The translations under genes were made by a program, and so were the position numbers. Source: a virus (Duplodnaviria > Heunggongvirae > Uroviricota > Caudoviricetes). Taken from it: a DNA stretch of 64,000 nt. The notes under the pieces were generated by a model. The model was not told the origin of the DNA. It saw only the letters and a program-made list of their open reading frames with translations, and made no database searches. Position 1 is the stretch's first letter; the number at the start of each line of letters is the position of its first letter. Positions 9,466 through 36,534 of this stretch are shown piece after piece. The stretch is taken from positions 188,732-252,731 of IMG/VR virus record IMGVR_UViG_3300037512_000782; one strand, written 5' to 3'.

Positions 9466-10206
9466 ATGACAGCAAAAGCGATTCGTGATCGGTTTCGTGA
9501 TGAATACCATCGTGCTAAACTCGCAATACCAACCCGTGACGTAGAAGCGGTCTACGTAGAGCAAGCCAAGAAGGGCAACAAGGCCGCACTGCGAATGCTT
9601 GTAAACAAGTACATTCCGTTCTTGTACAAGATGGCGAAGAAGCTCAGCGACGCCTCGTACAATCTGACCGAGGATGAAATGGTGAACGCTGCCGTGTTCG
9701 GTATGCAGAAGGCCGTGGATGCTTTTGATCCGACGCTGGGCATCGCCTTCTATACGTACTATGCGCCGAAGGCCATGAACGAAATGCGCAAGGCTGGCTT
9801 CGATAGCTTGCTGGTGCATCGACCGGAAAACCAGCTCAAGTCCAAGGACGTAAACAAGGTGTCCGTGGCGATGGTCGATATCGAGAAGCGCAACGACCAC
9901 GAGCTGTCCATCATGGATAGGCTGTCTAGCGGAATCGCCACCGATCAAGAGACCAAGGACAATGAGAACAAGGCCCTCGTTGACGAGTTCATGTCTCTGC
10001 TTCTCCCTACTGAACATGACGTAATGAGCCGTATCTACTTGTATGACGACGATGACGTGACTCTTCGCAGCGTAGGCACCGACCTCGGCGTGTCTCACGA
10101 ACGAGTACGCCAGCTCAAGGCGTCCGCTATCCGCCGCATCCATAATACTGCGAAGTACCATGACATGATGGCTGAACAAGCATATCTCCACAACGAGGCG
10201 ATATGA
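9466..10206 (+). CDS. phage-encoded RNA polymerase sigma factor, sigma-70 family
   Basis: Region-2-like segment LVNKYIPFLYKMAKKL ... GMQKAVDAFDPTLGIAFYTYYAPKAMNEM. Classic region 4.2 HTH at TLRSVGTDLGVSHERVRQLKASAIRRI. Confidence 0.8.
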   Translation: MTAKAIRDRFRDEYHRAKLAIPTRDVEAVYVEQAKKGNKAALRMLVNKYIPFLYKMAKKLSDASYNLTEDEMVNAAVFGMQKAVDAFDPTLGIAFYTYYAPKAMNEMRKAGFDSLLVHRPENQLKSKDVNKVSVAMVDIEKRNDHELSIMDRLSSGIATDQETKDNENKALVDEFMSLLLPTEHDVMSRIYLYDDDDVTLRSVGTDLGVSHERVRQLKASAIRRIHNTAKYHDMMAEQAYLHNEAI

Positions 10207-10691: not shown

Positions 10692-11181
10692 TGGCGACAG
10701 CGTTGTGCGGCTGTTCGAGAACAACTTGTTCGACTACGACAAAGACCGCCAGTTGATGCTGTATAACGAGAATGGATTGAGCATGGAATTTTCAGTACCT
10801 TGGCTGAGCCTTGAGGTCGGTAAGACTTACGATTTAGCTAAGGTGCGATCCGTACTCGGCGAAATGATGCGCAATGTGCATCACACCGAGGCTATTCGGG
10901 ATAAGAAGAACGACCAGTCGTTTATGGAAACGCTGTCCAAGGAGATGACCGAGTTCGGTATGCAGCATATCGAAAATACAGAGTCATTCGCTTATGAAGA
11001 GGACGGAAAGTATTTATTCGGGTTCGACCTTGATTACATCCTCTCGTTGCTTGTGATAAACAAAGGGGAAACCGTCACGTCGTTGCTTACAGCTATGCGT
11101 GACTCCGAAAGAGATAAACGGAATAACACATTGGAAACGCGAGGTACAGACGATGGGAAGAAAACCGAAGAAGCAAATTAA
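10675..11181 (+). CDS. hypothetical protein
   Basis: 168-aa ORF. Confidence 0.5.
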   Translation: MAVMINGDSVVRLFENNLFDYDKDRQLMLYNENGLSMEFSVPWLSLEVGKTYDLAKVRSVLGEMMRNVHHTEAIRDKKNDQSFMETLSKEMTEFGMQHIENTESFAYEEDGKYLFGFDLDYILSLLVINKGETVTSLLTAMRDSERDKRNNTLETRGTDDGKKTEEAN

Positions 11182-11341
11182 CGAGGAGCTGCTGGACGAT
11201 AGTCTCGACCAGGGTGCAGAACCGATTGACGAAACACTAGACGAGGAACCGGAAGATGTCGAAGAAACACAAGAACTCTCGTTCGGAGACGACTCCTACA
11301 GACGACTTGGAGAAATCCCAGAACTCGACGAGTGGAACTAA
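11153..11341 (+). CDS. small acidic protein (start uncertain)
   Basis: In-frame ATG within track ORF 11099-11341. Strongly acidic (DEE-rich). Overlaps the next ORF out of frame. Confidence 0.3.
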   Translation: MGRKPKKQINEELLDDSLDQGAEPIDETLDEEPEDVEETQELSFGDDSYRRLGEIPELDEWN

Positions 11342-11717
11342 CTCAATCAGAAACCTTGGAGCCACGCTAACGCCGCACAAGTACACGGCGACGTACGTTC
11401 GAGCTGGCACCCTTGGAAAGACTAAGAACGCCTTGCTGGTCATGCTGCGCGACGAGCAAGACCACTTGCTGTGCGACCACATCTGGGTCAAGTACTGCAA
11501 TGCCTTCAAGCGTATGAACGCTGGCGACTTGATGTCATTCACGGCTACGCCGTACCGATACATCAAGGGGTACAGCGGCGATAACCATGCGATGTCTGAT
11601 TTCTCGGTAGATGTCAGTCTGACGGATTTCCGACAAGTTCGAGTGGTAGGGCACAACCCAGTAGTCGAACAGAAAGTAAATGACCTAAAACAAAGATTCG
11701 AAAACTCAGAAAAGTAA
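11256..11717 (+). CDS. hypothetical protein (start uncertain; alternative ATG 11442)
   Basis: 153-aa track ORF. Bidirectional terminator 11721-11752 follows. Confidence 0.45.
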   Translation: MSKKHKNSRSETTPTDDLEKSQNSTSGTNSIRNLGATLTPHKYTATYVRAGTLGKTKNALLVMLRDEQDHLLCDHIWVKYCNAFKRMNAGDLMSFTATPYRYIKGYSGDNHAMSDFSVDVSLTDFRQVRVVGHNPVVEQKVNDLKQRFENSEK

Positions 11718-11720
11718 TAA

Positions 11721-11752
11721 AAAAGCTGACCAGAAACTGGCCAGCTTTTTTG
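11721..11752. terminator. bidirectional intrinsic terminator
   Basis: AAAAGCTGACCAG-aaa-CTGGCCAGCTTTTTT, between convergent genes. Confidence 0.65.
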
Positions 11753-11770
11753 CTTAGGATGATAGAATGA

Positions 11771-13552
11771 CTAGATGTCGACTTCATCACTGTCTGTAAC
11801 GTCGATGTCGTCCGAACTTGGTGCTTCCGCATTGGAACCATCGTCGTCGTAGTCACCGAGCATCACGGTCTTGTTCTTGTTGGCCGCGTCTTGGTTACGC
11901 AACTGGTCGCGCTGCATCTGCTTGAAGCTTCTTGCAGACAAGATAGTCTGGACAAGGCGTCTTGCAGTTGCATTGTAATCGCCAGTGCCACTCGTGTTAG
12001 CGAGGCTTGCCTTGCGGTCAGCGATGTACTGATTGATCTTTTCGAACAAGTTGCTTTCAGTAAGGGTAGCCAAGTACGGATCTTCGTTCTCGGTTTCGTT
12101 TGCTTCGGAACCGAAGAAGTCGATGTCGTCCGGATCAGTGTCAGCGTCCTTGAGGGCTGCGCTGAGTGTCGTGTAGAAGCTGTCCTTGTTGGCAAGCATC
12201 TTGTCGTCAAGAACCAAGGAAATCTTCTGTGCAAGCTGGTCGTCACCGTTGTTGAGCATGCCCTTGATGTCGGCGCGAGTCGGCATGGAAACATTGAGTG
12301 CTTCGAGGTCGGCTGGGAAGAGCGAAATCAAGACTGGCGTACGCGGGTCGGACATGTCGTGCTTGACCGAGTTGGCGATGTTGAGACCGATGGTAGCCTT
12401 GCCAGCGCCGAAACGGTTCTGTGCATCGAGATAGACGGCATAAGCAACGATGTTGTGCTTGGTCATTAAGCTGCCAGTACCCTTGCTCTGCTTGTTGATG
12501 AGGTCGTTCTCGACCTTGAGGTTAACTACGTTGGTCGTAGAGCCGTCTTCGTTCTGAATCTGGCCCGGCGTCAAGGTAAAGTAGTTCGGATTGATCTTGC
12601 TACCGACGCGACCCTTCTGTGCGATAACCGTCAAGTTCTGCTTGATGCCGCCGATGATACGAGCGGTATCAGTATTGGCGTCGAACGGAATCTGGATCGT
12701 ATCCGGGTCGAGCTTGCCAGTTACATCTACCGTACCATCAAGATGACGATATTCGTTAGTTGCTGGAGCTTCTTCCTCAGTCGGAGCCGCCTCAGGAGCC
12801 TCCTCCGGCTTTTCTGGTTCAACCTTTGGAGATGCTTGGGTTTCGACGGCGTCTTCGCTGGTCAAGAAGTCGTGTCCGATGTAGACACCATTTTTCTTCT
12901 TGCCTCCCTTGGCGGTAAGTTCCTTCATCTTGGGATTTGCGTTGATCATCGGAATCCATGCGTCATGGAATGCGGCAATCGTCTTCATGATTGGAAGCAT
13001 GACATTGTTGTAAACGAAGCTGGCTGCGCCTGGGACTGGGTCGCTTGCTTTAGGAGATTCAAACTTGTCAAGCAAGGTTTTCTTGATGCGCTGCTTGGCC
13101 TCAAGGCTGTCAGGAATGGCTTCGGAATAAAGCTTCTTGACCGCAGCGACTACGCCAGTATAGGCTTGATTGTCAGTGATAGACTTTTCTTGAAGCTGCT
13201 TCAGAATGCGGTTGAGAGTAAGGATCGGACTGGTCGTATCCATACCACCGAAATATCCGCGCAAGTAGGAACGCTTGTCTTCCGTGTTGTCGATGATGTG
13301 CTGCTTGTTCGGCATTTCGAGTTCATGCATTCGCTCGATCTTGCCCAGCTGGCTCACCAACTTGGAAAGGAAAGTGACAAGTACGGTGTGCGGATCGGTG
13401 CTGTCGATAAACGCCTTCGGGTCGTTGTCCGCATTCGTGTGGGTCTCAATTTGTTCTTCGAACAAAATGTTGAAAATCTTTGCAACGGCTTCCAGATAGA
13501 TTTCGTTGCTCTTGGTCTTGAATTCCGAGATGGTAGACTCGAATAGATTCAT
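11771..13552 (-). CDS. hypothetical protein with acidic C-terminus
   Basis: 593-aa ORF, divergent from the 13645 gene. Confidence 0.65.
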   Translation of the reverse strand: MNLFESTISEFKTKSNEIYLEAVAKIFNILFEEQIETHTNADNDPKAFIDSTDPHTVLVTFLSKLVSQLGKIERMHELEMPNKQHIIDNTEDKRSYLRGYFGGMDTTSPILTLNRILKQLQEKSITDNQAYTGVVAAVKKLYSEAIPDSLEAKQRIKKTLLDKFESPKASDPVPGAASFVYNNVMLPIMKTIAAFHDAWIPMINANPKMKELTAKGGKKKNGVYIGHDFLTSEDAVETQASPKVEPEKPEEAPEAAPTEEEAPATNEYRHLDGTVDVTGKLDPDTIQIPFDANTDTARIIGGIKQNLTVIAQKGRVGSKINPNYFTLTPGQIQNEDGSTTNVVNLKVENDLINKQSKGTGSLMTKHNIVAYAVYLDAQNRFGAGKATIGLNIANSVKHDMSDPRTPVLISLFPADLEALNVSMPTRADIKGMLNNGDDQLAQKISLVLDDKMLANKDSFYTTLSAALKDADTDPDDIDFFGSEANETENEDPYLATLTESNLFEKINQYIADRKASLANTSGTGDYNATARRLVQTILSARSFKQMQRDQLRNQDAANKNKTVMLGDYDDDGSNAEAPSSDDIDVTDSDEVDI

Positions 13553-16155: not shown

Positions 16156-16363
16156 AGCAATATAGACAACATCAAGGAAACGAAGGCCCAGAGGGCCGCT
16201 AGGATTGCCGGGACTGGCAACGGTGCGACACTTCGCACCAGACTGGTTCTGGATAGGAAGAAATACTCACGGAAAATCAAGCATAAAGGACAATCCATCG
16301 CAAGCGCGATGGATTTCGCTTTTATAGTGGACAATTTTGTGGGTTATTGCTATATTGTCCATT

Positions 16364-17236
16364 ATGGAAAGAATAATATCAGATACAATGCCGTTAGGTG
16401 ATCGTATCAAGTCGTACGAACACCAGTTCACTGGCTACACTATTGACTCGTCACTACCATTTATAGCTCGTGTGGACGGTAAGGCGTTCCATACCTATAC
16501 AAAGCGTATGCGCAAGCCGTTCGACGAACGTTTCGTGAAGGCGATGCAAGAGACTGCAAAAAAGTTGACAGAAACGTTCGATCCGATTCTGTCCTATGTG
16601 CAGTCCGATGAAATCACGTTACTATTCAAGCCGACAGCGGAACCGTTCTTGAGTGGAAAGCTGTCGAAGATGAACAGCATCATCGCAGCGACGGCGACTT
16701 ACTGGTTCAATCAGTTAATAGACCCAGAGACGCCGACCGTTGGCATTCCTATTTTCGATTGCCGCGTGTTCAACGTCCCAGATGAATGGGAAGCCGTCAA
16801 CGCGCTTCGCTTCCGTTACCGTGACGCCGTGCGCAATGCGGTTAGCGCTGCCGCTCGATACAAGGTCGGCCACTCGAAGTGCAACGGACTGAATACCGAC
16901 GAAAAACTCAAGTTAATAGGCAGCGACTGGAAGGGCTATTCTGTAGCGGCTCGCTACGGTACTTTCTACCGTCGAGTCAATGTCGTGAAGCCAGTCGCAG
17001 TCGATCGCGCCGCGCTTCCACCAGAGGTGGCTGCGAAGATTCCAGAAACTTGCCTCCGCACGGAAATTCACGAATACTACGTGAACATTGAGCAAACGTG
17101 GAACACTAGCTTGCCATACAAGTCGGAACCAGTCCCAGCTCCGTTAAGCTGCCCAGTGAGCGGCATCGACCACATCAAAAATGCCACGGACGTTATCTTC
17201 CGTGGACAAAATGCGGTACTTGATTCAAACGTATAA
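16364..17236 (+). CDS. tRNA-His guanylyltransferase-like protein (Thg1/TLP family; 3'-5' nucleotide addition, tRNA 5'-end repair)
   Basis: IARVDGKAFHTYTKRMRKPFDERF matches the Thg1 VVRLDG+xFHxF core; SDEITLLFK matches the SDEYSFVF metal-binding motif. The start could be ATG 16364 or 16388. Promoter box TTGCTATATTGTCC at 16347-16360. Terminator 17240-17270. Confidence 0.8.
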   Translation: MERIISDTMPLGDRIKSYEHQFTGYTIDSSLPFIARVDGKAFHTYTKRMRKPFDERFVKAMQETAKKLTETFDPILSYVQSDEITLLFKPTAEPFLSGKLSKMNSIIAATATYWFNQLIDPETPTVGIPIFDCRVFNVPDEWEAVNALRFRYRDAVRNAVSAAARYKVGHSKCNGLNTDEKLKLIGSDWKGYSVAARYGTFYRRVNVVKPVAVDRAALPPEVAAKIPETCLRTEIHEYYVNIEQTWNTSLPYKSEPVPAPLSCPVSGIDHIKNATDVIFRGQNAVLDSNV

Positions 17237-19942: not shown

Positions 19943-19994
19943 GTCGAGCCTCCTTTTATAGCCGTTTATAAAATCTTTTACTATATTGGTTGTT

Positions 19995-21185
19995 ATGAAA
20001 TACCTTAAAAATTACGACTTTATATTTGTCGGCGCTGGTCTCACCAACGCCACCATCGCAGAAACCATTGCAACATACCGTGGCAATTTTGACCGAAAGA
20101 TCAAGATGCTCGTCATCGACAAGCGTCCCCATATCGGCGGAAACTGTTACACCGAAACCAAGAACGGTATCGACGTACACAAGTACGGTGCGCATATCTT
20201 CCACACGTCTGACGACTTCGTACATGAATATATCAGCGATTTCGGCGAATGGGTTCCGTTCATCAACCAGCCGATTGCTGTATTCACGCAGCCGGACGGT
20301 ACGAAGCGCATGTACAACATGCCGTTCAACATGAATACCTTCGTGCAGCTGTTCCCCGGACTCACTACGCCAGCCGAAGTCAAGGCGGCCATCCAGAAGG
20401 AAATCGACGAGGCTGGTATCAAGGAACCGAAGAACCTTGCCGAACAAGCTATCTCCATGGTCGGTACGACAATCTTCAATACGCTCGTCAAGGGCTATAC
20501 GGAGAAGCAGTGGGGCCGTAAGTGCGAAGACCTTCCAGCCAGCATCATCAAGCGTCTCCCAGTGCGTTTCACGTTCGACAACAACTACTTCAATGACAAG
20601 TACCAGATGATGCCAGCGCATGGCTATACGAAAGTCATCGAGAACATGTTCAAGCATGCTGGCGAAATCGATGGTGCCCGTGTAGACATCATGCTCAACA
20701 CGTCCTACACGCAGTTGCAAGTTCTGGGTATCAAGGCCAAGCAAGTATTTTATTCTGGCGGCATCGACGAGTTCTATGACTACAAGCTCGGTGCGCTCAA
20801 GTACCGTTCCGTCAAGTTCAAGGAAAAGAAGTTCAAGACGGACAACGTGCAAGGATGCCCGGTCTGCAACTATACGTCGACAGACGTGCCGTACACTCGC
20901 TCTATCGAGCACAAGTGGTTCTGTCCGCACGACGACGCAAAGGGTTCTATCGTGAGCTACGAATACTCGTCCGAATGGAAGAAGGGCATGGAACCGTACT
21001 ATCCGGTCAATGACCAAGCAAACCACGACTTGTACGAGCGTTATAGGAAGTTGCACGAGGAAGAGCAAGCTACCGCGAAGACGAAGGTGACGTTCGTTGG
21101 ACGCCTCGGTCTGTATAGCTACATGGATATGGACGACTGTATCATGTCTGCACGGACTGCGGCCTTCTTGAGCATGCAAGAATAA
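19995..21185 (+). CDS. glf: UDP-galactopyranose mutase
   Basis: N-terminal FAD-binding YDFIFVGAG...KMLVIDKRPHIGGNCYTE and HKYGAHIFHT are diagnostic for UGM. Track ORF starts at TTG 19986; the ATG is 19995. Promoter box TTTTACTATATTGG lies just upstream. Confidence 0.9.
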   Translation: MKYLKNYDFIFVGAGLTNATIAETIATYRGNFDRKIKMLVIDKRPHIGGNCYTETKNGIDVHKYGAHIFHTSDDFVHEYISDFGEWVPFINQPIAVFTQPDGTKRMYNMPFNMNTFVQLFPGLTTPAEVKAAIQKEIDEAGIKEPKNLAEQAISMVGTTIFNTLVKGYTEKQWGRKCEDLPASIIKRLPVRFTFDNNYFNDKYQMMPAHGYTKVIENMFKHAGEIDGARVDIMLNTSYTQLQVLGIKAKQVFYSGGIDEFYDYKLGALKYRSVKFKEKKFKTDNVQGCPVCNYTSTDVPYTRSIEHKWFCPHDDAKGSIVSYEYSSEWKKGMEPYYPVNDQANHDLYERYRKLHEEEQATAKTKVTFVGRLGLYSYMDMDDCIMSARTAAFLSMQE

Positions 21186-22565: not shown

Positions 22566-22946
22566 ATGATTCAGAACTGGAAAATGAACGCTTTACATGA
22601 TGTCGCTACTAGCTTGACAGCCCACACTGGATTGAAGACCCAGCCGAAGGGCGACGACGCAGTCGATATCACCATCAACGATATGCGTCTAGGTACATTG
22701 ACGGCGGATAAAAGCGATCCGGCCTTGTTCATGTACACCTCAGCCGACGGCTATGACGTGACTGGAACCTACGACGACATCGAAGGTGCCATCAAAAAAG
22801 ACCTCGACAACCAAGTCGAGTTCGTGGAGGTCACACCGGATTTTTTTCCTCCGGGAACCACCTTTGAATCAGTAGTCAAGGACAAAGTAAAGACTCCGCA
22901 TCTGTTGGAAGCGATACTAAAATCCTACAAGAATTACAAGCAATAA
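22566..22946 (+). CDS. hypothetical protein
   Basis: 126-aa ORF, followed by bidirectional terminator 22948-22985. Confidence 0.5.
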   Translation: MIQNWKMNALHDVATSLTAHTGLKTQPKGDDAVDITINDMRLGTLTADKSDPALFMYTSADGYDVTGTYDDIEGAIKKDLDNQVEFVEVTPDFFPPGTTFESVVKDKVKTPHLLEAILKSYKNYKQ

Positions 22947-22947
22947 A

Positions 22948-22985
22948 AAGAAAGGCTGGTCAAACGACCAGCCTTCTTATTCTAT
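22948..22985. terminator. bidirectional intrinsic terminator
   Basis: GGCTGGTC-aaac-GACCAGCC followed by TTCTTATTC. Confidence 0.6.
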
Positions 22986-23001: not shown

Positions 23002-23592
23002 CTAGGCAGCAGCCTTGCGGATGATCGTGAAGCCGCAGCGTTCCATGACGAGGATTGCAGCAGCCTGTGCGCCCGGTGTAGCGGCACAAGCGTATTCCAC
23101 GATTTCGATCGGCGTGTCCTTGAACATTGCACGGAGAATCATTGCGTTGGAAATGACGCAAATGTCGGTGCAAGTTCCGACAAGGCGAATGCGCTTGATG
23201 CGTTCCTTGCCGAGCTTTGCGAGCTCTTCCTGGCTCTTGAGGGAGCCGTCCGCATTGAAGGCATCGTCGCCGAGGAAGTACTTCGCCCAGCCGAGGTAGC
23301 CGAACGTCGGCTTCTCGATACGAGTAGCGTAAGCGTCGTCGAGCGCTTGCTGGATGGATTCTTCGAACTTCCAGCCTTCCGTGCCCTTGATGCAGTGTTC
23401 CGGAAGAACGCCTTCGAGGGTCTGCTTGAAGTCTGCGCCGTGGGTGTCCATCGTGTAGAACACGTAGCCCTTCCATTCACGGATTTCTACGATGACTGCA
23501 CCGATGATTGCCTTGGCGTCGTCGTTTGCAAGAGAACCGTCGATGAAGTCCTTCTGCATGTCGATAACGATGAGGTATTCTTTTGGATTCAT
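23002..23592 (-). CDS. pncA: isochorismatase-family cysteine hydrolase, probable nicotinamidase
   Basis: LIVIDMQKDF (catalytic Asp), a lysine region and VGTCTDICV (catalytic Cys) give the D-K-C triad of PncA/isochorismatase. Start trimmed to MNPKEYL at 23592; the track ORF extends to 23754. Confidence 0.7.
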   Translation of the reverse strand: MNPKEYLIVIDMQKDFIDGSLANDDAKAIIGAVIVEIREWKGYVFYTMDTHGADFKQTLEGVLPEHCIKGTEGWKFEESIQQALDDAYATRIEKPTFGYLGWAKYFLGDDAFNADGSLKSQEELAKLGKERIKRIRLVGTCTDICVISNAMILRAMFKDTPIEIVEYACAATPGAQAAAILVMERCGFTIIRKAAA

Positions 23593-23605
23593 GATTTTGT
23601 CCTTG

Positions 23606-24802
23606 TTAAAGAGTTTGACGGAGCTGGATCGCCTTGGCAATGAGCTCACGGTGATGGAAAGCGAGAGGAATTTCGTCGAGCTTGTCGATCGGATACCACA
23701 TGGCGTCCTTTGCGTCGTCTTGTGCTTCCGGATCGGCTGGCAAGATTCCTTCACGGTTGAAGTCGAACATCATGCCGATGTCGTAGCCCCAGTAGTCCTT
23801 GTGGACATCGCAGCGAGGATCCTTCGGCTTGAATACGCCGACTTGATGCACTTGCGACGTGCCGATGGTAAAGCCAGTTTCTTCCTTGACTTCACGGACA
23901 CCAGCTTCCTCGCAAGTTTCCTTCGGATTGGCGAAGCCTCCCGGCAAGCACCAGTAATCGTGGTACGGAGCCTTCAAGCGCTTCACCAAGAGGATACGGT
24001 CGTTGTGGAAGATGGCCGAAGTCACGGTGACGGAAGGACGAGGGAAGCGGAACGGATCGTAGTTGGCTACGAGTTCGTCCTCAACATCCTTGTATTCCTT
24101 CGGTTCGGACTGTCCGTACAACTTGTTGCGGCGGATATACGACATCACTACCGGAGACACTTGGTCACAGAAGCACAGCGGATCGAAATTCATCATAAGG
24201 CGAGCCTTGGTAGAACTCGTCTTCGGAATGATCCAGTCGACGTATTCCAAGCGTTCTTGGCTGCTGCGCATCTGCTTGTAAGTTTCATCCGAGATGGTGC
24301 CGAGTCCTTTGGCAGAGTCAAGTGTTTCGATGAAGGCGGTACGACGGACAATCAAGAAGTTGACGTTCTTGAGAATCCAGTCGCTGTTCACCCACTGCTT
24401 TGTAAGCAAAGAAATCCATTCGTCGGAACCGAGAACCAGCATGAAGGTCGCATCGGCCATGCTCGTCTCCTTGCGGAGATTCTGCAGAGCTTCAGCGGTG
24501 CGGCTGACTTCGTCGATGATCTTGACTCGGTGGAAGATTTCGGACGGTTCGCCTTGATTGTAGGCAGCCGGAGAATCCGAATTATCGGAGTACAGACTGT
24601 GAAGCGAATTGACCGTATGGACAATCATGGCCATGCGGTCTTCGCACTCAACCGAGTACTTCTTGGTATCGTTGTCGCTTACCAAGATGTACAAGAGGGC
24701 TTCTGGTTCCTTCTTGAGACGGTTGAGGAGTTCGGTAATAATGGCGGTGTGCGCAGTCGTTACCGGATCGAATGCGCCGCCGTAGATGTACACCTTCTTC
24801 AT
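23606..24802 (-). CDS. nadM: bifunctional nicotinamide/nicotinate mononucleotide adenylyltransferase + Nudix hydrolase (NadM-Nudix type)
   Basis: N-terminal GGAFDPVTTAH matches the (H/T)xGH nucleotidyltransferase motif; LVLGSDEW also present. C-terminal Nudix box GGFANPKETCEEAGVREVKEETG fits Gx5Ex7REUxEExGU. Confidence 0.85.
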   Translation of the reverse strand: MKKVYIYGGAFDPVTTAHTAIITELLNRLKKEPEALLYILVSDNDTKKYSVECEDRMAMIVHTVNSLHSLYSDNSDSPAAYNQGEPSEIFHRVKIIDEVSRTAEALQNLRKETSMADATFMLVLGSDEWISLLTKQWVNSDWILKNVNFLIVRRTAFIETLDSAKGLGTISDETYKQMRSSQERLEYVDWIIPKTSSTKARLMMNFDPLCFCDQVSPVVMSYIRRNKLYGQSEPKEYKDVEDELVANYDPFRFPRPSVTVTSAIFHNDRILLVKRLKAPYHDYWCLPGGFANPKETCEEAGVREVKEETGFTIGTSQVHQVGVFKPKDPRCDVHKDYWGYDIGMMFDFNREGILPADPEAQDDAKDAMWYPIDKLDEIPLAFHHRELIAKAIQLRQTL

Positions 24803-26151
24803 TAGTCGAGTGCGTCCTTGTTTTCTGGAATGGGTTCGTACTGGTACGCATCCTTCGCACGTTCGATCACCTTCGGATCGGGGCAGTTGACCTTGCCCGG
24901 AGAGTCGGAGAGCTTCACGGCGTACTTGCCGTTGGACATGACGAGCTTCATGATCATGCGAAGCGCGTCACGCTTGATGCCTCCCTTGAAGCGGAGCACC
25001 TTGCAAGCGAGGAAGCCGCCGATACCGAACGCAACATTGATACGAGTGTGGAAGCGTTCAGCGATATCGAGAGACTGGTCGCAGTTGAGGCTGTCAGACC
25101 AGCAGCCAACCTTGCTCTTGGAATTGATTGCGTTCTTGAGGTAGTGTGCGATAAGCATTTCGCCCCAGACATACGGGTCGCCGGAATCGTGGCGGCAGCC
25201 GTCGAACAGCTTTGCGTAATACTTGTCGAAGTCGCGCAAGAATGCGTTGAAGCCGAAGTTGTCGGAAAGCGCGATACCGAGGTCGCCACGGAATTCGTCA
25301 GACCAGTCTTCGAGAACGCGCTGCTGCACGAGTTCAAGCGGAATGTCCTTGATGCCCTGATACAAGGCATACATTTCGTGGGCGAAAGTACCGATGGCCT
25401 TGCAGCCGAGCTTGATTGCCAAGTATACGTTGGACGTGCCAACGAAGGCCGGGCAGAAGTCGAGCATGGTCTTGACCATGTATTCGTTCCATTCGTCAGA
25501 TACGGAACGACGGACGCCGAAGTCGGAAATGGTGAACTTGACACCACGGCGGAGTGCTGCGTTCCACTTGGCGATAGATTCGTTGAGGGCCTTCTTGGAT
25601 TCTTCCCAGTCGATTTCGAGGTCGTCGAAGAAGAGGTTCTGGATGATCTTCAAGACGTAGATTTCAAACCAAGTGACTTGGATGGCTGGGCCGTCAGCCC
25701 AGATGTGGAGACCGCCGTTGCGAGAAGGGTCGTAGTCGACGTGGATGTACTTGCGCTTGAGCTGGAAGTCGGCAAGCCATTCGATGAAGTCGTCTGACAG
25801 CCACGGCATGACACGGCGGATGCCTTCGAGTTCCCATTCAGTAAACTTGAGTGTGCAAAGGTGGTCGAGTTCGCGATTGATTTCGTCATAGAACGGAGTA
25901 AGGTCGACGCCTTCGGAACGGAGCTTGAATTCCCAGTAAGCTCGTTCGTTCGGATGCTTGTGGAACACGCACTGGCACATACCGAACTTGTACGTATCGG
26001 TCTGCGTTAGGTTGTTCACAAACCACTTGTCTTTGTTCTTGCGCTGATACTGCTTGTTTACAGTGACGCCGACTGCACGGCGCTTGCGAACAACGGTGCG
26101 ACAAGGCTGCTTCGCCCTCGCGATTGTTTTTTCTGTGACTTTAACTGCCAT
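24802..26151 (-). CDS. pncB: nicotinate phosphoribosyltransferase
   Basis: Collinear matches to PncB: TDTYKFGMCQCVFH, ISDFGVRRSVS, FVGTSNVYLAIKLGCKAIGTFAHE, RHDSGDPYVWGE, AFGIGGFLAC, KLSDSPGK. Has a basic ~45-aa N-terminal extension. 1-nt stop/start overlap with nadM. Confidence 0.9.
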   Translation of the reverse strand: MAVKVTEKTIARAKQPCRTVVRKRRAVGVTVNKQYQRKNKDKWFVNNLTQTDTYKFGMCQCVFHKHPNERAYWEFKLRSEGVDLTPFYDEINRELDHLCTLKFTEWELEGIRRVMPWLSDDFIEWLADFQLKRKYIHVDYDPSRNGGLHIWADGPAIQVTWFEIYVLKIIQNLFFDDLEIDWEESKKALNESIAKWNAALRRGVKFTISDFGVRRSVSDEWNEYMVKTMLDFCPAFVGTSNVYLAIKLGCKAIGTFAHEMYALYQGIKDIPLELVQQRVLEDWSDEFRGDLGIALSDNFGFNAFLRDFDKYYAKLFDGCRHDSGDPYVWGEMLIAHYLKNAINSKSKVGCWSDSLNCDQSLDIAERFHTRINVAFGIGGFLACKVLRFKGGIKRDALRMIMKLVMSNGKYAVKLSDSPGKVNCPDPKVIERAKDAYQYEPIPENKDALD

Positions 26152-26279
26152 CGGAATAGTCCTTGTTAAAGATGAATGTTTCGCGGAAATATAGCAAATG
26201 AGTGTGAGTCTGGCAAGCCCAAGCAGAAATAGTTAAAAAGTAAGCTATGTTGTTCGAAGGCTTTATTATATTTGGCGGC

Positions 26280-26477
26280 ATGTTGTGGAATGTATTGCTA
26301 ATATTGCTGATTTTGACGATAATATCGGTGTATGGGATTGCCATCGTCAAGCTGGTTTGCTATATTAAGACCCAGAAACGGGTCGACCGTCTGGAACACA
26401 CAGTCGGCGACCTATCACAAAAACTCACCGAAATTATGAAGGACACTAATGAGAGCAACGACGGAAACCTACAATAA
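26280..26477 (+). CDS. small membrane protein (alternative start 26247)
   Basis: Product is MLWNVLLILLILTIISVYGIAIVKLVCY..., a TM helix. A TATATTTG box ends 5 nt before ATG 26280. Confidence 0.4.
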   Translation: MLWNVLLILLILTIISVYGIAIVKLVCYIKTQKRVDRLEHTVGDLSQKLTEIMKDTNESNDGNLQ

Positions 26478-27231
26478 TGTGCATAGCATCTTGACCGCAC
26501 CAGATGTGGTGGATCGACTTGAGCGTGAACGGAGCAATCCTCTGTTCGGTTTCATCGACCAGTACTTGGCCGGATGTGAGCACGTCAACTATCACTACGA
26601 AGGTGATGTGTGGGTTCATACGAAGCTCGTCATTACGAATATCTTCAAGGGCGAACATGACTACTTGGATGTCGCTGCGGCGTTGCTTCACGACATCGGC
26701 AAGAAGGATGCGCTTGCGAAGAACAACGGCAAGAACATGGCCGGACATGAATTTATTGGTCGTCCGCTTGCCGAAGAAGTTTTGAACAAATTCGACTTCA
26801 GCCAGAACGAGAAGGATGTCGTTCTGTGGATGGTAGAGAACCATACGAAGGCGAACGGCTTGCCGAAGGCGAAGATGAAGTTCGCTTGCTGGACATTCGT
26901 GTCTCATCCGTTGTTTTATCGCGCAGTACGTCTTGCAGTAGCCGATTCCAACGGCACTATCGGCGCTGATGGTAAGCCAGTCATGGACTACATGGCGGCA
27001 ATCGAAGCGAACAAGATTGTCAATCTCTGCTTGCACAATCCGATGCCCGGCCATCTCGTGACATGGAATGACATGATTGCCTACCCAGGTGTCGAAGAAA
27101 TTACTGACGCGAACAAGAAGTTTGAGCTTTACGAACTCTGCCACAAGATCCAGATCAACGGTGGCGGTAACAAGAAGGATTCAATTCTCAGAGCTGCGCT
27201 TAGGTGCATGAAGGACAAAGGATCGATATGA
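26449..27231 (+). CDS. HD-domain phosphohydrolase
   Basis: WVHTKLV ... LLHDIGK ... D gives the H..HD..D signature of the HD superfamily. Confidence 0.7.
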   Translation: MRATTETYNNVHSILTAPDVVDRLERERSNPLFGFIDQYLAGCEHVNYHYEGDVWVHTKLVITNIFKGEHDYLDVAAALLHDIGKKDALAKNNGKNMAGHEFIGRPLAEEVLNKFDFSQNEKDVVLWMVENHTKANGLPKAKMKFACWTFVSHPLFYRAVRLAVADSNGTIGADGKPVMDYMAAIEANKIVNLCLHNPMPGHLVTWNDMIAYPGVEEITDANKKFELYELCHKIQINGGGNKKDSILRAALRCMKDKGSI

Positions 27232-27875: not shown

Positions 27876-28098
27876 TTCTACTTAAACTGTGTAGAATCCA
27901 TCTATGTATGGCTTCGAGGACGTTGCCCATCAGTGGAGTCATGCCATGCATCATCCTCGTCTTGACGGCGATCCATCGTTTCTTCATGAGGCTATAAAAA
28001 TGGTGGCATGCGCCTATGGCAAACGCTATGTATATGGCCATAAAAATTTTTTCACGCATATTTCACAAATTATATCAAAAACCTCTTGACGCTGATGA

Positions 28099-28117
28099 GT
28101 GTTATTACTATATTTCG
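28099..28117 (+). promoter_or_regulatory. host-like promoter box GTTATTACTATATTTCGTG upstream of cca
   Basis: TATATTTC ends ~5 nt before ATG 28122. Confidence 0.5.
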
Positions 28118-28121
28118 TGGC

Positions 28122-29378
28122 ATGAAGATTGATTTGAGCAAATACCACGAATTGGAGCTGAGTGACGGCCTCGCATTGGCGAAGGCGATCACCGAGCTCG
28201 GAGACGGCAAGGCGGAAGCTTATGTCGTCGGCGGATGCGTACGTGACCTTGTTCGTCATCAGCTAGGGCAGACTAGCACGGTAGATATCCATGATGTCGA
28301 TATCGCCACGTCGCTGTCTCTCGAAGAACTGAAGGCTAACTTCCAAACGGTCAGCAACAACGGCGAAAAACACGGAACGCTGCTGGTATTCTGGAACACA
28401 CAATACTTTGAAGTGACGCACTTCCGCGTCGACGGCGACTATAGCGACGGTCGTCATCCGGACGACGTATCCTTCACGAGTTCTTTCGAAGAAGATACGG
28501 CTCGCCGTGACTTTACTATCAACGCGCTCGGCATGAACTGGGACGGCGAAATCATCGACTTCCATGGCGGCGTTGAAGATATCAAGAAGAGAACCATCCG
28601 CGCTGTCGGTAATCCTGACGAGCGTTTCAAGGAAGATGCTCTCCGCATGATTCGTGCGGTGCGCTTCGCGGTAAACTTCGATTACATTATCGATAATAAC
28701 ACGTCTAGCGCAATCAGCAAGAACGCCGAGTTGGTTGAACATGTATCGAACGAACGTATTCGTTCCGAGTTCTTGAAGCTGTCCTCTTACGACAACATGC
28801 CCGATTTTATCGACCGTTTGATCTGGGTCGGCTTGATTAAGCATATCAGAGCGTTCGTCGGCATGGACTGGTACGAAGTCAAGTGCAACCTTATTGAGTG
28901 CGATGACTTGCTGACTGCAGACAACCTATTCCCCGCTATCTGCTACACGGCTAATGACGAAAGCAACTTGGAAGCATTCGTTCCTACTCGTGAGGAACGC
29001 AAGATGTGGAACTGGCTCCGTTCTTACAAGAATGTGTACGCATGGGATCCGGATTCCAAGCTGTATTGGACTTCGCTGGTGGATTTCGTGTCTGGTCAGT
29101 TCGAGCTGCTGCTTGCGCTCAATGCTGATCTGTATTGTGATCGTGCGTGGTTGCCCAAGCTTCCAGCAGCAAGCTATCTGTTGCAGAATCCGCCCGACAT
29201 GAAGGCGATTTCTAAGAGGGTCGCCGATATGGGCATTCCTCAAGGCAAGGCTTTTGGTGAAAAGGTGAAAGAACTCACTGAAGCCGAATACGCCAAGATG
29301 GCGGCTGTATTCCCAAACACAGTCTCGCTGACGATGGGCAACAGTACGCTTGTCTATAAAATTGAATCTGTCAAATAA
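28122..29378 (+). CDS. cca: tRNA nucleotidyltransferase (CCA-adding enzyme), class II
   Basis: AYVVGGCVRDLV (GGxVRD), DVDIATS (DxD catalytic motif) and RRDFTINAL (RRD motif). Track start 28086 is TTG. ATG 28122 sits 5 nt after a TATATTTC box. Confidence 0.85.
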   Translation: MKIDLSKYHELELSDGLALAKAITELGDGKAEAYVVGGCVRDLVRHQLGQTSTVDIHDVDIATSLSLEELKANFQTVSNNGEKHGTLLVFWNTQYFEVTHFRVDGDYSDGRHPDDVSFTSSFEEDTARRDFTINALGMNWDGEIIDFHGGVEDIKKRTIRAVGNPDERFKEDALRMIRAVRFAVNFDYIIDNNTSSAISKNAELVEHVSNERIRSEFLKLSSYDNMPDFIDRLIWVGLIKHIRAFVGMDWYEVKCNLIECDDLLTADNLFPAICYTANDESNLEAFVPTREERKMWNWLRSYKNVYAWDPDSKLYWTSLVDFVSGQFELLLALNADLYCDRAWLPKLPAASYLLQNPPDMKAISKRVADMGIPQGKAFGEKVKELTEAEYAKMAAVFPNTVSLTMGNSTLVYKIESVK

Positions 29379-29399: not shown

Positions 29400-29972
29400 A
29401 TGGGTAAAACAATCATTCTCGGCGCGGTCGGCTTTATCGTCGTCGCAATCCTCACAGTAATCGCATCCATCTTCATGGTTCAGAACTATCAGAACCGTGC
29501 AATCCAGATGGAACAGCTGGTGGAAAAGTCGCAGTCCAACCTCAACGCGGAATACAACCGCCGCGCTGGCCTTCTCGTCAACTTGGCGGAAGCCGTGATG
29601 AGCTATGACGAACACGAAGCCAAGGTTCTCGTGGAACTCTCGAAGGCTCGTACTCCAGACGGCGGCAAGGGAAACGTGAACGCTTCCGCTTACATCCAAG
29701 GTGTCGTGGAACGCTATCCGCAGCTCAGATCGATCGAGAATTACGATAGGTATATGACGGAACTTGCGATGACTGAAAATCGCATTGCGTCACATCGTAA
29801 TGATTACAATACCATGGTTGGGAACTATATCGCCTATGTGCGCGGATTCCCGGCTCGTTTCTTGCTCTCTATTCTCGGATATCAGCCGAAGAATTACGAA
29901 TACTTGCAGTTCGAAAAGGCTCCGGTAGACGCACCGACTGGCCTCTTGAAGAAGAAGGCTGATAAGGAATAG
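29400..29972 (+). CDS. LemA family membrane protein
   Basis: N-terminal TM helix, then QNYQNRAIQMEQ and EYNRRAGLLVNLAEAV, matching the LemA signature QxxRRADLIPNLV. Confidence 0.75.
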   Translation: MGKTIILGAVGFIVVAILTVIASIFMVQNYQNRAIQMEQLVEKSQSNLNAEYNRRAGLLVNLAEAVMSYDEHEAKVLVELSKARTPDGGKGNVNASAYIQGVVERYPQLRSIENYDRYMTELAMTENRIASHRNDYNTMVGNYIAYVRGFPARFLLSILGYQPKNYEYLQFEKAPVDAPTGLLKKKADKE

Positions 29973-29973
29973 C

Positions 29974-30765
29974 ATGAGCTCTCGCACACTGATCGACGGT
30001 GGCACGTGGGATCTCACTGTCCGTGAGCTGTTCTTGTCGATCGTTGGCTTACTGCTTGCCATAATCATTGGCTGCATTATCGCCAACAGCATCGCGCAAG
30101 CCGAAGACGAGTATAACGTGAAGTTCTATCACGCTATACAAGTGTCCGACTCCACCCAGTTCAATTATGCCTTCAAGACCAACGCTGGCCACATGCTGGC
30201 GTACGGCACTGTCAGCGCTGTTGGGTTCGTTACCGACAACGGTATCGGAAACTACATGTCGTTGACTAGGGACTTGGAGGAATACCGTAAGCACCATCGC
30301 ACAGTCTGTTCTGGCGAAGGGAAGCACCGTCATTGCCATACGGAAACCTACTGGACATGGGATGTCATCAAGACTGAACGGTTCCATGTCGATCAAGTGG
30401 ACTTCCTCGGCAAGCGGTTCTACTACTCTCAGTTTCCTCAGCTTCCGTCTGAACGCTATGTCGGCACAGTACCGATTCCGTCCGGCGGATTCATTGAAGG
30501 ATTGTTTAAGAACAGACAGCGGTATGTGTATCACGGCAGACGTTTAACGTACACTGGTACGATGTACACGAATGCGGTCAACCACACGATCAACGACTCC
30601 AAGTGGGCTGACGGCATTACGCTTGACAGAGCTATCGACTTCTACATCCATGAACATGGAGTATTGATTTTCTGGATTATCTTCGGTGTCATTATCGTCG
30701 TGGCCATCATCTTCTTTGTGGCGGCTCCGAACGAATGGCTTAACGGTTCAGTAAGGGACTGGTAA
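29974..30765 (+). CDS. two-pass membrane protein with ~180-aa extracytoplasmic domain
   Basis: TM helix at the N-terminus (LFLSIVGLLLAIIIGCIIA) and at the C-terminus (VLIFWIIFGVIIVVAIIFFV). 2-nt gap from the LemA gene. Confidence 0.6.
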   Translation: MSSRTLIDGGTWDLTVRELFLSIVGLLLAIIIGCIIANSIAQAEDEYNVKFYHAIQVSDSTQFNYAFKTNAGHMLAYGTVSAVGFVTDNGIGNYMSLTRDLEEYRKHHRTVCSGEGKHRHCHTETYWTWDVIKTERFHVDQVDFLGKRFYYSQFPQLPSERYVGTVPIPSGGFIEGLFKNRQRYVYHGRRLTYTGTMYTNAVNHTINDSKWADGITLDRAIDFYIHEHGVLIFWIIFGVIIVVAIIFFVAAPNEWLNGSVRDW

Positions 30766-30766
30766 T

Positions 30767-31177
30767 ATGAACGTAAAAATTGTAAATGGACTTGACGGAA
30801 ACGGATCCGTCACAATTACGGACAGCAATGGCGATGTCATGGTGTCCTTGAAGGACTGCCCGGAATTTCCGGTGTCTGGCGACATCACGATGGAATCCGA
30901 CAATGTTCTTATCGTCGGTGGCCGCCGCATCGAATGCGGTAAGCGTATCGCCGGGATCAACATCTGCGGTAACATTAAGTCCGTCCAAAATCTTCCAAAC
31001 ATTGTCGTGAACGGAAATGTCAGCAACGTCAGTACGACGTCTGGTGACGTGACTGTCCACGGCGACGTAAATGGCTCGGTGTCCGCCGTTTCTGGCGATG
31101 TCGAAGTCAGAGGTAGCGTCGCTGGCTCGGTCAGTACCGTGTCTGGCGATGTAGACGTCAGAAACAATCAACAATAA
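30767..31177 (+). CDS. beta-helical repeat protein (bactofilin/polymer-forming-like)
   Basis: Repeated (V/I)xGDVxVxGxV units: VSGDITM, VHGDVNGSVSAVSGDVEVRGSVAGSVSTVSGDVDV. Confidence 0.55.
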   Translation: MNVKIVNGLDGNGSVTITDSNGDVMVSLKDCPEFPVSGDITMESDNVLIVGGRRIECGKRIAGINICGNIKSVQNLPNIVVNGNVSNVSTTSGDVTVHGDVNGSVSAVSGDVEVRGSVAGSVSTVSGDVDVRNNQQ

Positions 31178-31189
31178 AGGAAAGTAAAC

Positions 31190-32827
31190 ATGGATATGTC
31201 CAATGTTCTTCTTTACGGCGGAATAGCAGTCGTCGTGCTGTTCCTCCTCGTACTCTTCTGTGTGTCCTACATCAAGGCCGCACCCGACGAAATCATCATC
31301 ATTTCTGGCTTCCGCAAGCGCCGTACCATCATTGGCCATGCCGGATTCAAGATTCCGTTCTTGGAACGAGCCGACAAGCTCAGCTTGAAGCTCTTCTCCA
31401 TCGACGTGAAGACCAAGGACATTCCGACCAGCGACTACATCAATGTGGGTGTGGATGCCGTCGTGAGTGTGAAGGTGTCTGATGAACCGACCCGCATCGA
31501 ATCTGCTGCACAGAACTTCTTGAACAAGAAACCTGAAGACATCGCCGAAATGATCACGGATATCCTCGAAGGTAATATGAGGGAGATCGTGGGCCAGATG
31601 GAACTCGTGAAGTTGGTCAACGACCGCAAGGGTGTGTCCGAACTTGTCCAGAAGAACGCTGACCCAGACCTCCAGCGCCTCGGCTTGGAAATCCAGACGT
31701 TCAACATCCAGAACTTCAGTGACGATAAGGGCGTAATCGACAACCTCGGCGTGGATAAGACCTCCGCTATCCGCAAGGCTGCAGCAATCTCCAAGGCCAA
31801 TGCAGAACGCGACATCAGCGTTGCTGAATCTCAGGCCAAGAAGGAAGCCAACGACGCCGCCGTGGCTGCAAACCTCGAAATCGCCCAGAAGCAGAACGAA
31901 CTCGAAGTGAAGAAAGCTGACCTCAAACGCATCGCCGACACGAAGAAGGCTGAAGCTGACGCTGCTTACGAAATCCAGAAGCAAGAACAGCAGAAGGTCA
32001 TCAACATCAAGGCCGCTGACGCCGAATGTGCTCGCCAAGAAAAGGAAGCAGAAATCCGCGAACGCATGGTCAACGTGAAGAAGAAAGAACTCGAAGCCGA
32101 ACTCGAAAAGACTGCAGAAGCAAAGCGCAACGCTCAGATCCAGAACTCCGAAGCTGACCTCTACCGTCAGAACAAGGACGCAGAAGCAAAGCTCTTTGCA
32201 AAGACTCAAGAAGCAGAAGCCATCAAGCAGATCGCTGAAGCTGAAAAGGCTCGCGCCTTCAACGAAGCTGAAGCCATCCGCGCAAGAGGTCAGGCAGAAG
32301 CTGACGCCATCAAGGCAAAGGGTCTTGCAGAAGCCGCTGCCCTCGATCAGAAGGCAGAAGCCATGCAGAAGTATGGTGAAGCCGCTCGTCAGGAAATGCA
32401 GTTGAAGGCCCTTGAAAAGTACTTCGACCAGTTGCCGAGTGTCGCAGCCGCCATCGCAAAGCCGATGGAAAGAATCGGCGGCATCACCATGTACGGCAAC
32501 GGCAACACCGCTGCTCTCACTGGCGACATCATCAAGACTTTGACCCAAGTATCCAATGGTCTCACCGAATCGCTCGGTATCAGCCTCCCCAATGTGCTTA
32601 GCTCCATGTTCGGCGCAAAGCTTGCTGGCGTAGGCAACAACAAGGCCGAAAAGGTTCCTTGCGACGTCGTGAACGAAGCACCGAAGGTTGATACAGAAAC
32701 TCCGAAGGCCGCCCCGGCTCCGAAGGCTGAAGCTCCCAAGATGACCGCTGAACAGGTCTCCAAGATCGCAGCGACCGTCAAGAAGACTCAGCAGAAGCCG
32801 TCCGAACGCAAGCTTCCGTGGGAATAA
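31190..32827 (+). CDS. flotillin-like SPFH/band-7 protein with long EA-rich coiled coil
   Basis: N-terminal TM helix, then an SPFH core (IIIISGFRKRRTIIGHAGFKIPFLERADKLSLKLFSIDV...). Followed by ~250 aa of AEAxxKAxAEA flotillin-type coiled coil. Terminator 32853-32884. Confidence 0.85.
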   Translation: MDMSNVLLYGGIAVVVLFLLVLFCVSYIKAAPDEIIIISGFRKRRTIIGHAGFKIPFLERADKLSLKLFSIDVKTKDIPTSDYINVGVDAVVSVKVSDEPTRIESAAQNFLNKKPEDIAEMITDILEGNMREIVGQMELVKLVNDRKGVSELVQKNADPDLQRLGLEIQTFNIQNFSDDKGVIDNLGVDKTSAIRKAAAISKANAERDISVAESQAKKEANDAAVAANLEIAQKQNELEVKKADLKRIADTKKAEADAAYEIQKQEQQKVINIKAADAECARQEKEAEIRERMVNVKKKELEAELEKTAEAKRNAQIQNSEADLYRQNKDAEAKLFAKTQEAEAIKQIAEAEKARAFNEAEAIRARGQAEADAIKAKGLAEAAALDQKAEAMQKYGEAARQEMQLKALEKYFDQLPSVAAAIAKPMERIGGITMYGNGNTAALTGDIIKTLTQVSNGLTESLGISLPNVLSSMFGAKLAGVGNNKAEKVPCDVVNEAPKVDTETPKAAPAPKAEAPKMTAEQVSKIAATVKKTQQKPSERKLPWE

Positions 32828-36449: not shown

Positions 36450-36490
36450 AAAACGTGTCAACTATGGTTGACACGTTTTTACTTTTTTGC
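36450..36490 (+). terminator. intrinsic terminator
   Basis: AACGTGTCAAC-tatg-GTTGACACGTT followed by TTTTACTTTTTTG. Confidence 0.75.
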
Positions 36491-36534
36491 TATATTTTTC
36501 AATAACTTCACATTAAACACAAAGGAAATCCACT

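Follow-up and report, generated by a model that had tools for sequence, protein, structure and literature searches.

A three-gene phage operon predicted to salvage NAD+ by the deamidated route

The virus record IMGVR_UViG_3300037512_000782 (IMG/VR, Caudoviricetes) contains a compact operon of three genes assigned to NAD+ salvage. They encode a nicotinate phosphoribosyltransferase (PncB), an adenylyltransferase fused to a Nudix domain and a putative nicotinamidase (PncA). The operon was analysed within a stretch of 64,000 nucleotides, positions 188,732 to 252,731 of the record, which we call the window. Its genes are co-directional on the minus strand and fill window positions 23002-26151 (Table 1). 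The stop codon of pncB and the start codon of the fusion gene overlap by one base (TAATG), and 13 nt separate the fusion gene from pncA. Together with one promoter and one terminator, these junctions indicate a single transcription unit, as the original prediction had proposed from the 1-nt and 13-nt spacings.

A mechanical list of open reading frames (ORFs) places the start of pncA on a GTG (23754), which would make this gene overlap with that of the fusion. We take the ATG at 23592 as the start because it has a ribosome-binding site and gives a protein of the length found among homologues (191-196 aa). The ribosome-binding context AACAAGGAC is common to all three ATGs and lies at 26159-26167 in front of pncB.

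A predicted promoter with an extended -10 element sits 37 nt upstream of the pncB ATG. The motif TTGACA/TTGCCA-N15-TGCTATATT occurs at five sites in the window and is kept upstream of pncB in the related loci L001 and L004 (relatives are referred to by such numbers throughout). The hairpin of the terminator behind pncA is bidirectional and is common to a convergent gene. Judged from these signals, the host RNA polymerase probably reads the operon, using a strong, sigma-70-like promoter. Upstream of pncB, two copies of the motif point away from each other, at 26216-26188 on the minus strand and 26338-26366 on the plus strand. Since a sigma-70-family factor (regions 2 and 4 present) is also encoded in the window, a further class of promoters is implied in addition to the host-type one of the NAD operon.

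Table 1. Window positions of the operon, its signals and neighbouring genes
Feature	Position	Strand	Details
pncB	24802-26151	minus	449 aa
PncB basic N-terminal extension	26020-26151	minus	residues 1 to ~44; uncovered by PncB models and 1YIR
Adenylyltransferase::Nudix fusion gene	23606-24802	minus	398 aa
NadD-like adenylyltransferase domain (predicted)	24098-24802	minus	fusion residues 1 to ~235
Nudix domain, ADP-ribose pyrophosphatase / NrtR type (predicted)	23609-24055	minus	fusion residues ~250-398
pncA	23002-23592	minus	196 aa, from ATG at 23592
Sigma-70-like promoter (predicted), extended -10	26188-26216	minus	TTGCCA-17-TATATT, TG before -10; consensus scan, 10/12 matches
Other promoter-motif copies	2895-2923, 8040-8068, 26338-26366, 36468-36496	plus	TTGACA/TTGCCA-N15-TGCTATATT
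Intrinsic terminator	22951-22976	minus	11-bp G+C-rich hairpin, then T-run
Convergent gene	22566-22946		
vWA protein	631-2853		740 aa
Sigma-70-family factor	9466-10206		
tRNA-repair-type genes	16337-17236, 26449-27231, 28086-29378		Thg1-like tRNA-His guanylyltransferase, HD-domain protein, CCA-adding enzyme
UDP-galactopyranose mutase; LemA + SPFH/flotillin pair	19986-21185, 29400-32827		
ArdC-like protein, then RadC-like JAB protein	45163-46972		ArdcN + zincin-like metallopeptidase in the ArdC-like protein

Assignment of the three enzymes

The pncB product passes two curated models of its family, NCBIfam NF003704 (393 bits, cut-off 379, E = 1.5e-117) and TIGR01514 (326.9 bits, cut-off 269.55). 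Both Pfam domains of the enzyme are present (PF17767, 97.6 bits; PF04095, 182.2 bits), and the protein aligns to PncB of P. aeruginosa (1YIR) with 241 bits over 394 residues. In this alignment, the motif IGTFAHEM falls on LGTMAHEW of 1YIR. We take the histidine of GTxAHE to be the autophosphorylated residue of the ATP-coupled enzyme known from Salmonella and E. coli PncB. By sequence, the pncB product is an ATP-coupled nicotinate phosphoribosyltransferase, and its nearest cellular relatives are gammaproteobacterial PncB proteins. The PHROG family 'nicotinamide phosphoribosyl transferase' matches only part of the protein (55 bits), and an identity as NadV or Namat is ruled out by the curated PncB cut-offs and the 1YIR alignment.

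PncB begins with a basic extension, which contributes to the 14 lysines and arginines found within the first 50 residues. The original prediction gave its length as about 45 aa. The extension is real and conserved, but it comprises 30-35 extra residues, as the 1YIR alignment opens at query residue 44 and chain residue 12. Together with its KQYxRKN motif it is conserved in L001, L004, L006, L008 and L011, and cellular PncB proteins are without it. A start-codon artefact is ruled out by the AAGGA site at the ATG and by the conservation in relatives; there is no ATG between the PncB start and the conserved core.

PncA matches PF00857 with 56.6 bits (cut-off 27). The catalytic triad D11, K94 and C145 is invariant in homologues, as are D49, H51 and H66 (TMDTH...PEHC), which align to DWH...PRHC of P. 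horikoshii PncA (1ILW). We assume that these Asp/His/His residues correspond to the metal ligands of solved PncA structures, including 1ILW, and that they separate nicotinamidases from other isochorismatase-like hydrolases. The best sequence matches in the PDB are nicotinamidases. The AlphaFold2 model of PncA has a predicted local distance difference test score (pLDDT) of 96, and its top six Foldseek matches are all nicotinamidases (5ZN8, 6A8L, 1ILW, 3S2S and 3R2J). The nearest folds come from B. subtilis, P. horikoshii, S. mutans and Leishmania, with a template modelling (TM) score of 0.72-0.78 for the B. subtilis enzyme 5ZN8. The metal site and the fold neighbours rule out a non-nicotinamidase isochorismatase-like hydrolase, and we assign pncA as the gene of a predicted metal-dependent nicotinamidase. 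Against the E. coli-type model NCBIfam NF008623, PncA scores 23.9 bits where the cut-off is 174; it is assigned to the short Firmicutes/archaeal type, not to the E. coli type. It is 40-50% identical to cysteine hydrolases of ~170 aa from gut Firmicutes and carries a lineage-specific insertion of 20-30 aa.

The fusion protein matches PF01467 in its N-terminal half (38.8 bits, residues 6-167) and PF00293 in its C-terminal half (66 bits, residues 262-389). GGAFDPVTTAH occupies residues 8-18, and the Nudix box is intact (G289-x5-E295-x7-R303 E304 V K E307 E308 T G310 F). Both motifs, like the PncA triad, had been quoted in the original prediction and are present. Across 40 homologues of the fusion, G8, P13, T15 and H18 (GGAFDPxTxxH) and R201 (SSTxxR) are invariant, and position 17 is either A or G. 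The window protein has both nucleotidyltransferase signatures, (H/T)xGH and, towards the C-terminus, SxTxxR, the latter as SSTKAR. In the Nudix half, R303, E304, E307 and E308 and the D328-P329 motif are likewise invariant.

The adenylyltransferase domain had been thought to be a NadM, an assignment that we revise. Its top NCBIfam adenylyltransferase model is the NadD equivalog TIGR00482 (65.6 bits), and phmmer matches it to S. aureus NadD (2H29). The AlphaFold2 model of the fusion (pLDDT 88) finds the NadD structures 2H2A, 5DEO, 8AIH, 3E27 and 1KAQ at target TM scores of 0.70-0.79, with a root-mean-square deviation (rmsd) of 3.4 for 2H2A. The PRK05379 NadM-Nudix models cover only residues ~223-392, that is, the Nudix half, with 30-56 bits against cut-offs of 347-449, and phage NadM-Nudix genes searched by tblastn likewise cover only this half. 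The best whole-chain folds are the NadM-Nudix proteins 2QJT and 2QJO, yet with an rmsd of ~15 Å, so that the packing of the domains differs despite the same architecture. Sequence and model thus assign the domain to the NadD-like family, the bacterial family that prefers nicotinate mononucleotide (NaMN), and not to NadM, which is consistent with a deamidated route.

The nearest solved relatives of the Nudix domain are 2FML, the Nudix domain of Shewanella NrtR with ADP-ribose (3GZ8) and Francisella NadM-Nudix (2QJT). It appears closest to the ADP-ribose-binding NrtR / NadM-Nudix group, whose solved ADP-ribose-binding or -hydrolysing members (3GZ8, 2QJT, 2QJO) are only 17-27% identical to the fusion.

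At the level of enzyme families, the three assignments originally made from motifs agree with hidden Markov models (HMMs; PF04095/PF17767, PF01467 + PF00293 and PF00857), catalytic residues, folds and solved-structure matches. The ratio of non-synonymous to synonymous substitution rates (dN/dS) was calculated against relatives with unsaturated dS. It is 0.07-0.13 for pncB (against close relatives), 0.03-0.05 for pncA and 0.03-0.27 over the three genes, all of which are under purifying selection.

Relatives of the operon, nadE and the phage setting

The full-length NadD::Nudix fusion forms a family of ~45 clusters at 90% identity, with ~60 representatives among 1.84 billion proteins. In the searched sets it is confined to metagenomic or viral contigs. 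None of the isolate genomes among 185,579 species representatives carries it, and no full-length match was found in 50,697 GenBank phage records; the family is apparently virus-restricted. A megablast search with the operon against GenBank phages and a single-sequence pattern scan of IMG/VR for the operon also returned no match; the clade is missing from both collections as searched.

The gene order pncB-fusion-pncA is retained down to ~25-40% identity of the fusion. At this distance, in L006/L007 and L008-L011, the order is extended to pncB-fusion-pncA-nadE. The original prediction had suggested surveying phage genomes for synteny of these genes. In IMG/VR we examined 30 loci with a full-length fusion, whose contigs reach 424 kb and carry T4-like genes, and looked for partners within 6 kb. 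The fusion is accompanied by pncB, pncA and nadE in 14 of the 30 loci, by pncB and pncA only in 2 and by pncB only in 3 (on short contigs in two of the three).

In the 64 kb of the window, neither tblastn nor an HMM built from six phage NadE proteins and searched against every six-frame ORF found a nadE, in agreement with the absence noted originally. A syntenic sister, L096, has a fusion of 59-62% identity in the same HD...GLF neighbourhood. Here, nadE sits exactly between pncA and the conserved terminator hairpin. In the window, L095, L001 and L004, by contrast, pncA runs straight into this hairpin. The hairpin AAGGCTGGyC...GrCCAGCCTT follows pncA in L095, L001 and L004, and nadE in L096. 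Across lineages, the similarity of NadE follows that of the fusion protein, which fits vertical inheritance and subsequent loss. We infer a loss of nadE because L096 has the gene at the syntenic place, because NadE tracks the lineages and because none is present in the window. The three-gene operon is thus most likely a reduced form of a four-gene pncB-fusion-pncA-nadE operon and would stop at nicotinate adenine dinucleotide (NaAD). That the first three genes are repeatedly kept without nadE suggests that host NadE is sufficient.

Two further observations concern the evolution of the operon. Compared with L001, PncA is 98%, the fusion 74% and PncB 91% identical, a mosaic (window 23002-24802) that suggests recombination inside the operon. 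In L011, a second fusion paralogue of 402 aa (10810-12018) follows nadE and matches the window protein at E = 1.6e-24.

By its gene content, the window is phage DNA, as had been claimed, and its genes are those of a large phage. The vWA protein matches PHROG 2426 (437 bits) and, at ~30% identity, 504 GenBank phage records, Ackermannviridae-like. Further genes encode a sigma factor, Thg1, a CCA-adding enzyme, an HD protein, an amidase, UDP-galactopyranose mutase, LemA and flotillin-like, ArdC-like, RadC and GP88 proteins, and many ORFs are without any match. Scans of the 64-kb window for tRNAs and Rfam families found none.

The operon is flanked by genes of tRNA-repair type, to which its relatives add genes for a T4-type RNA ligase 1 and for a Pnkp-like Metallophos+kinase protein. 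These surroundings look like a repair or counter-defence neighbourhood. Also nearby lies an ArdC-like/RadC-like pair, a combination characteristic of the anti-restriction modules that mobile elements carry. UDP-galactopyranose mutase and the pair of LemA and SPFH/flotillin are unusual phage cargo; the mutase and LemA/flotillin genes are syntenic with the operon across relatives.

The copies nearest to the operon (91-95% protein identity) were found in metagenomes of the ruminant gut and on two ruminal contigs of metagenome-assembled genomes (MAGs). On these two contigs (L102 and L103) the fusion is 95% identical, while one is binned in a Prevotella MAG and the other in a Fibrobacter MAG, both from rumen. 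At least one of the bins is contaminated with phage DNA, and we leave the host unassigned because the two labels contradict each other. The style of promoter and Shine-Dalgarno sequences and the likeness of PncA to Firmicutes proteins point to no consistent host.

Proposed pathway and its alternatives

All steps of the pathway that we propose are taken from the family assignments. PncA would convert nicotinamide to nicotinate, from which PncB, using phosphoribosyl pyrophosphate (PRPP) and ATP, would make NaMN. The NadD-like domain would join NaMN and ATP to NaAD, and host NadE would complete the route to NAD+. In parallel, the Nudix domain would cleave ADP-ribose into AMP and ribose-5-phosphate, which host enzymes could return to PRPP and ATP. 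The analysis shows the identities of the genes, their catalytic residues and folds, the anatomy and conservation of the operon, purifying selection, and nadE as missing from the window but present in relatives. Which substrates the enzymes prefer, the transfer of NaAD to NadE of the host and a role in counter-defence are what we infer from it. NADase effectors release nicotinamide and ADP-ribose, and the rebuilding of NAD+ by phages is established. Evasion of defence is therefore the most likely benefit. NARP1 and NARP2 allow phages to rebuild NAD+ and thereby defeat NADase defences (10.1101/2024.02.11.579819), and NARP3 (PnuC + NadR) rebuilds NAD+ against NADase defence as well (PMC13464706).

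Relatives of the operon provide some links to defence. In L009 (9181-10227), PncA carries at its N-terminus a fused Tad2-like domain (Thoeris anti-defence 2, PF11195, 83 bits), and in other relatives Macro and NADAR genes adjoin the operon. The stand-alone Tad2-like proteins closest to the L009 domain include one from Fibrobacter succinogenes. In the window, searches by tblastn and by HMM/phmmer on six-frame ORFs of at least 40 aa found no Macro, NADAR, Adps, Namat or Tad2; its only defence-type neighbours are general anti-restriction (ArdC-like) and tRNA-repair-type genes.

Taken as a whole, we think it fairly probable that the operon is a deamidated salvage operon that has lost nadE, is completed by host NadE and benefits the phage chiefly against NAD+-depleting defence. 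Several points weigh against this proposal. The adenylyltransferase domain does not reach the cut-off of TIGR00482 (112.45) and has TTAH where HxGH is expected. A preference for NaMN over NMN (nicotinamide mononucleotide) is suggested only by the family assignment, the coupling to pncB and the nadE of relatives. The nadE gene could sit in the genome outside the 64-kb window, and 11 of the 30 IMG/VR fusion loci have no partner within 6 kb. The Tad2-like::PncA fusion belongs to a single protein cluster, with no recurrence found when sought, and for this reason we treat it as weak evidence; overall, the links to counter-defence are circumstantial and their direct genomic support is thin. Removal of nicotinamide could relieve the product inhibition of some NADases. 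Finally, a general metabolic boost accounts equally well for the same genes.

This last point leads to the strongest alternative, a serious one, in which the operon serves auxiliary metabolism in general, topping up NAD+ for the replication of a large phage, and has no specific link to immunity. It would act in an infection that consumes NAD+, or in niacin-rich, NAD+-limited rumen hosts. Its biochemistry would be identical to that of our proposal, the window contains no NADase- or Thoeris-related gene, and the links to defence are few and all come from relatives. The NAD+ synthesis genes of jumbo phages have been interpreted along these lines (PMC11662467). We nevertheless regard a purely metabolic module as rather unlikely. 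The Nudix domain and the nicotinamidase target precisely the two products of NAD+ cleavage and not de novo precursors, and relatives have Tad2-like, Macro and NADAR neighbours. In addition, all phage NAD+ pathways so far tested serve counter-defence (10.1101/2024.02.11.579819; PMC13464706).

A second alternative places the fusion on the amidated branch, where it would use NMN like NatV, the NadM-Nudix protein of NARP2, or would accept both substrates. PncA and PncB would then not chiefly supply it, and it would not matter that NadE is missing. The two-domain architecture is that of NadM-Nudix, with 2QJT and 2QJO as the best full-length folds, and the divergent domain scores below the NadD cut-off. 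Some enzymes of the NadD family and eukaryotic NMN adenylyltransferases take both substrates. Against this stand four observations: the N-terminal domain matches NadD and not NadM models; translation of the fusion gene is coupled to that of pncB, whose product makes NaMN; nadE, needed only on the deamidated route, follows directly in most relatives; and the window contains no NMN-producing enzyme (NadV, NadR). An amidated route is therefore improbable in our view.

That the operon is bacterial DNA, be it an island of the host or a piece of chromosome that was wrongly assembled or binned, is very improbable: although 95%-identical copies occur in MAGs labelled Prevotella and Fibrobacter and PncB and PncA have close cellular homologues, these copies sit on two short contigs whose labels are contradictory, the window has a phage-typical vWA protein, phage-style genes and many ORFans, relatives lie on long IMG/VR contigs with T4-like genes, and the fusion is found in no isolate genome of the species representatives.

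Comparison with known NAD+ routes

Vibrio phage KVP40 encodes NadV and NatV, the NARP2 pair of a nicotinamide phosphoribosyltransferase and a NadM-Nudix protein (Lee et al. 2017; Osterman et al. 2024). The proposed deamidated salvage operon resembles this pair in that a phage would salvage NAD+ from nicotinamide with a phosphoribosyltransferase of the PF04095 superfamily, followed by an adenylyltransferase::Nudix protein whose Nudix half is homologous. In contrast to NARP2, the operon is predicted to be deamidated, adds a nicotinamidase and has PncB in place of NadV. Its adenylyltransferase is NadD-like and not NadM-like, and the product NaAD would still need NadE. NARP2 is marked by NadV/Nampt, whereas the sole phosphoribosyltransferase of the window passes PncB cut-offs.

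NARP1 (Adps + Namat) and NARP3 share with the operon the presumed purpose of rebuilding NAD+ during infection. Unlike these systems, the window encodes no Adps, Namat, PnuC or NadR. NadV, NadR and PnuC are absent from it in protein-model searches, and no window ORF matches Adps or Namat of phage Phass-1. Also unlike NARP1, the operon would hydrolyse ADP-ribose and not pyrophosphorylate and religate it. The operon thus belongs to none of NARP1, NARP2 and NARP3.

A different combination is seen in two human-gut phages, Phass-1 (L012, OQ749652.1, 5872-10427) and MT835544.1 (L099, 2242-7540). Here, a PncA-like protein and an NH3-type NadE cluster with NARP1-like Adps and Namat. The PncA-like proteins keep all catalytic and metal residues, and NadE of Phass-1 is annotated as 'hypothetical'. 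The composition of the cluster suggests a deamidated NARP1, in which ADP-ribose pyrophosphate (ADPR-PP) and nicotinate would give NaAD, followed by NadE.

Preiss-Handler clusters of pncB, nadD and nadE have been described bioinformatically in 'NAD-jumbo phages', for example Kuafu_71 (Microbiome 2024, PMC11662467); this report includes no experiment. The pathway logic, the clustering of the genes and the setting in large gut or rumen phages are the same as here, and the four-gene relatives of the operon (L006-L011, L096 and 14 IMG/VR loci) are of the NAD-jumbo kind. A pathway counts as complete there when pncB, nadD and nadE are all phage-encoded. The window has pncB and a nadD-like gene and lacks nadE both in its 64 kb and at the syntenic position, so the window on its own would not count as a complete pathway in this sense. 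On the other hand, it adds pncA and the NadD::Nudix fusion; the passages of the report found by term search mention neither the fusion nor pncA as part of a cluster.

Cultured jumbo phages contain related gene sets. Sinorhizobium phage Phosso (PV764938.1) has nadE, pncB, a MutT-like Nudix gene, an NMN adenylyltransferase and an isochorismatase-family hydrolase within ~6 kb, and Agrobacterium phage Atu_ph07 has pncB, an ADP-ribose pyrophosphatase and a PncA-like ORF. Unlike in the operon, the Nudix and adenylyltransferase genes of these phages are separate and in opposite order, hypothetical genes are interspersed and the arrangement is not compact; their PncB proteins are 28-30% identical to that of the window. 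Unfused versions also occur in the 735-kb uncultured phage LR756501 and in the 117-kb MT835470. Bacterial Preiss-Handler salvage by PncA, PncB, NadD and NadE uses the same enzymes and chemistry. The operon differs from it in being phage-borne, in the fusion of NadD to an ADP-ribose Nudix domain, in the basic extension of PncB and in the insertion of PncA.

The original prediction had regarded a PncA/PncB route as distinct from NARP1 and NARP2 and as a new variant. The first part stands, with NadV, Adps and Namat all missing from the window. The novelty is reduced by the clusters described in PMC11662467 and by the gene set of Phosso. What is new is the compact pncB-NadD::Nudix-pncA operon, the fusion as an apparently virus-restricted family, the evidence for loss of nadE and the conserved basic extension of PncB. 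In the literature on phage nicotinamidase, PncB and a fourth NARP, we found no experimental test of a PncA/PncB route; the experimentally tested phage NAD+ routes found there are NARP1-3 only.

We tentatively suggest that the operon may represent a fourth class of NAD+ reconstitution in phages, a deamidated one with a phage-restricted NadD::Nudix protein at its centre. This class would recycle both NADase products and, in the lineage of the window, would be trimmed to NaAD and dependent on host NadE; we see this as possible without holding it to be probable. Should its only effect be to top up NAD+, the operon would be an ordinary module of auxiliary metabolism in a large phage. The tested routes NARP1-3 use the amidated branch or the religation of ADP-ribose. 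If the fourth-class proposal is true, phages also use classical deamidated salvage against NADase immunity, and bacteria could not escape merely by controlling enzymes of the NMN branch. A phage could then drop the last enzyme and lean on the essential NadE of its host, which would be a vulnerability and a possible determinant of host range, and the operon would offer a compact cassette for phage engineering. Taken with the parallel in Phass-1 and MT835544.1, it would point to a systematic rebuilding of NAD+ via nicotinate among phages of gut and rumen.

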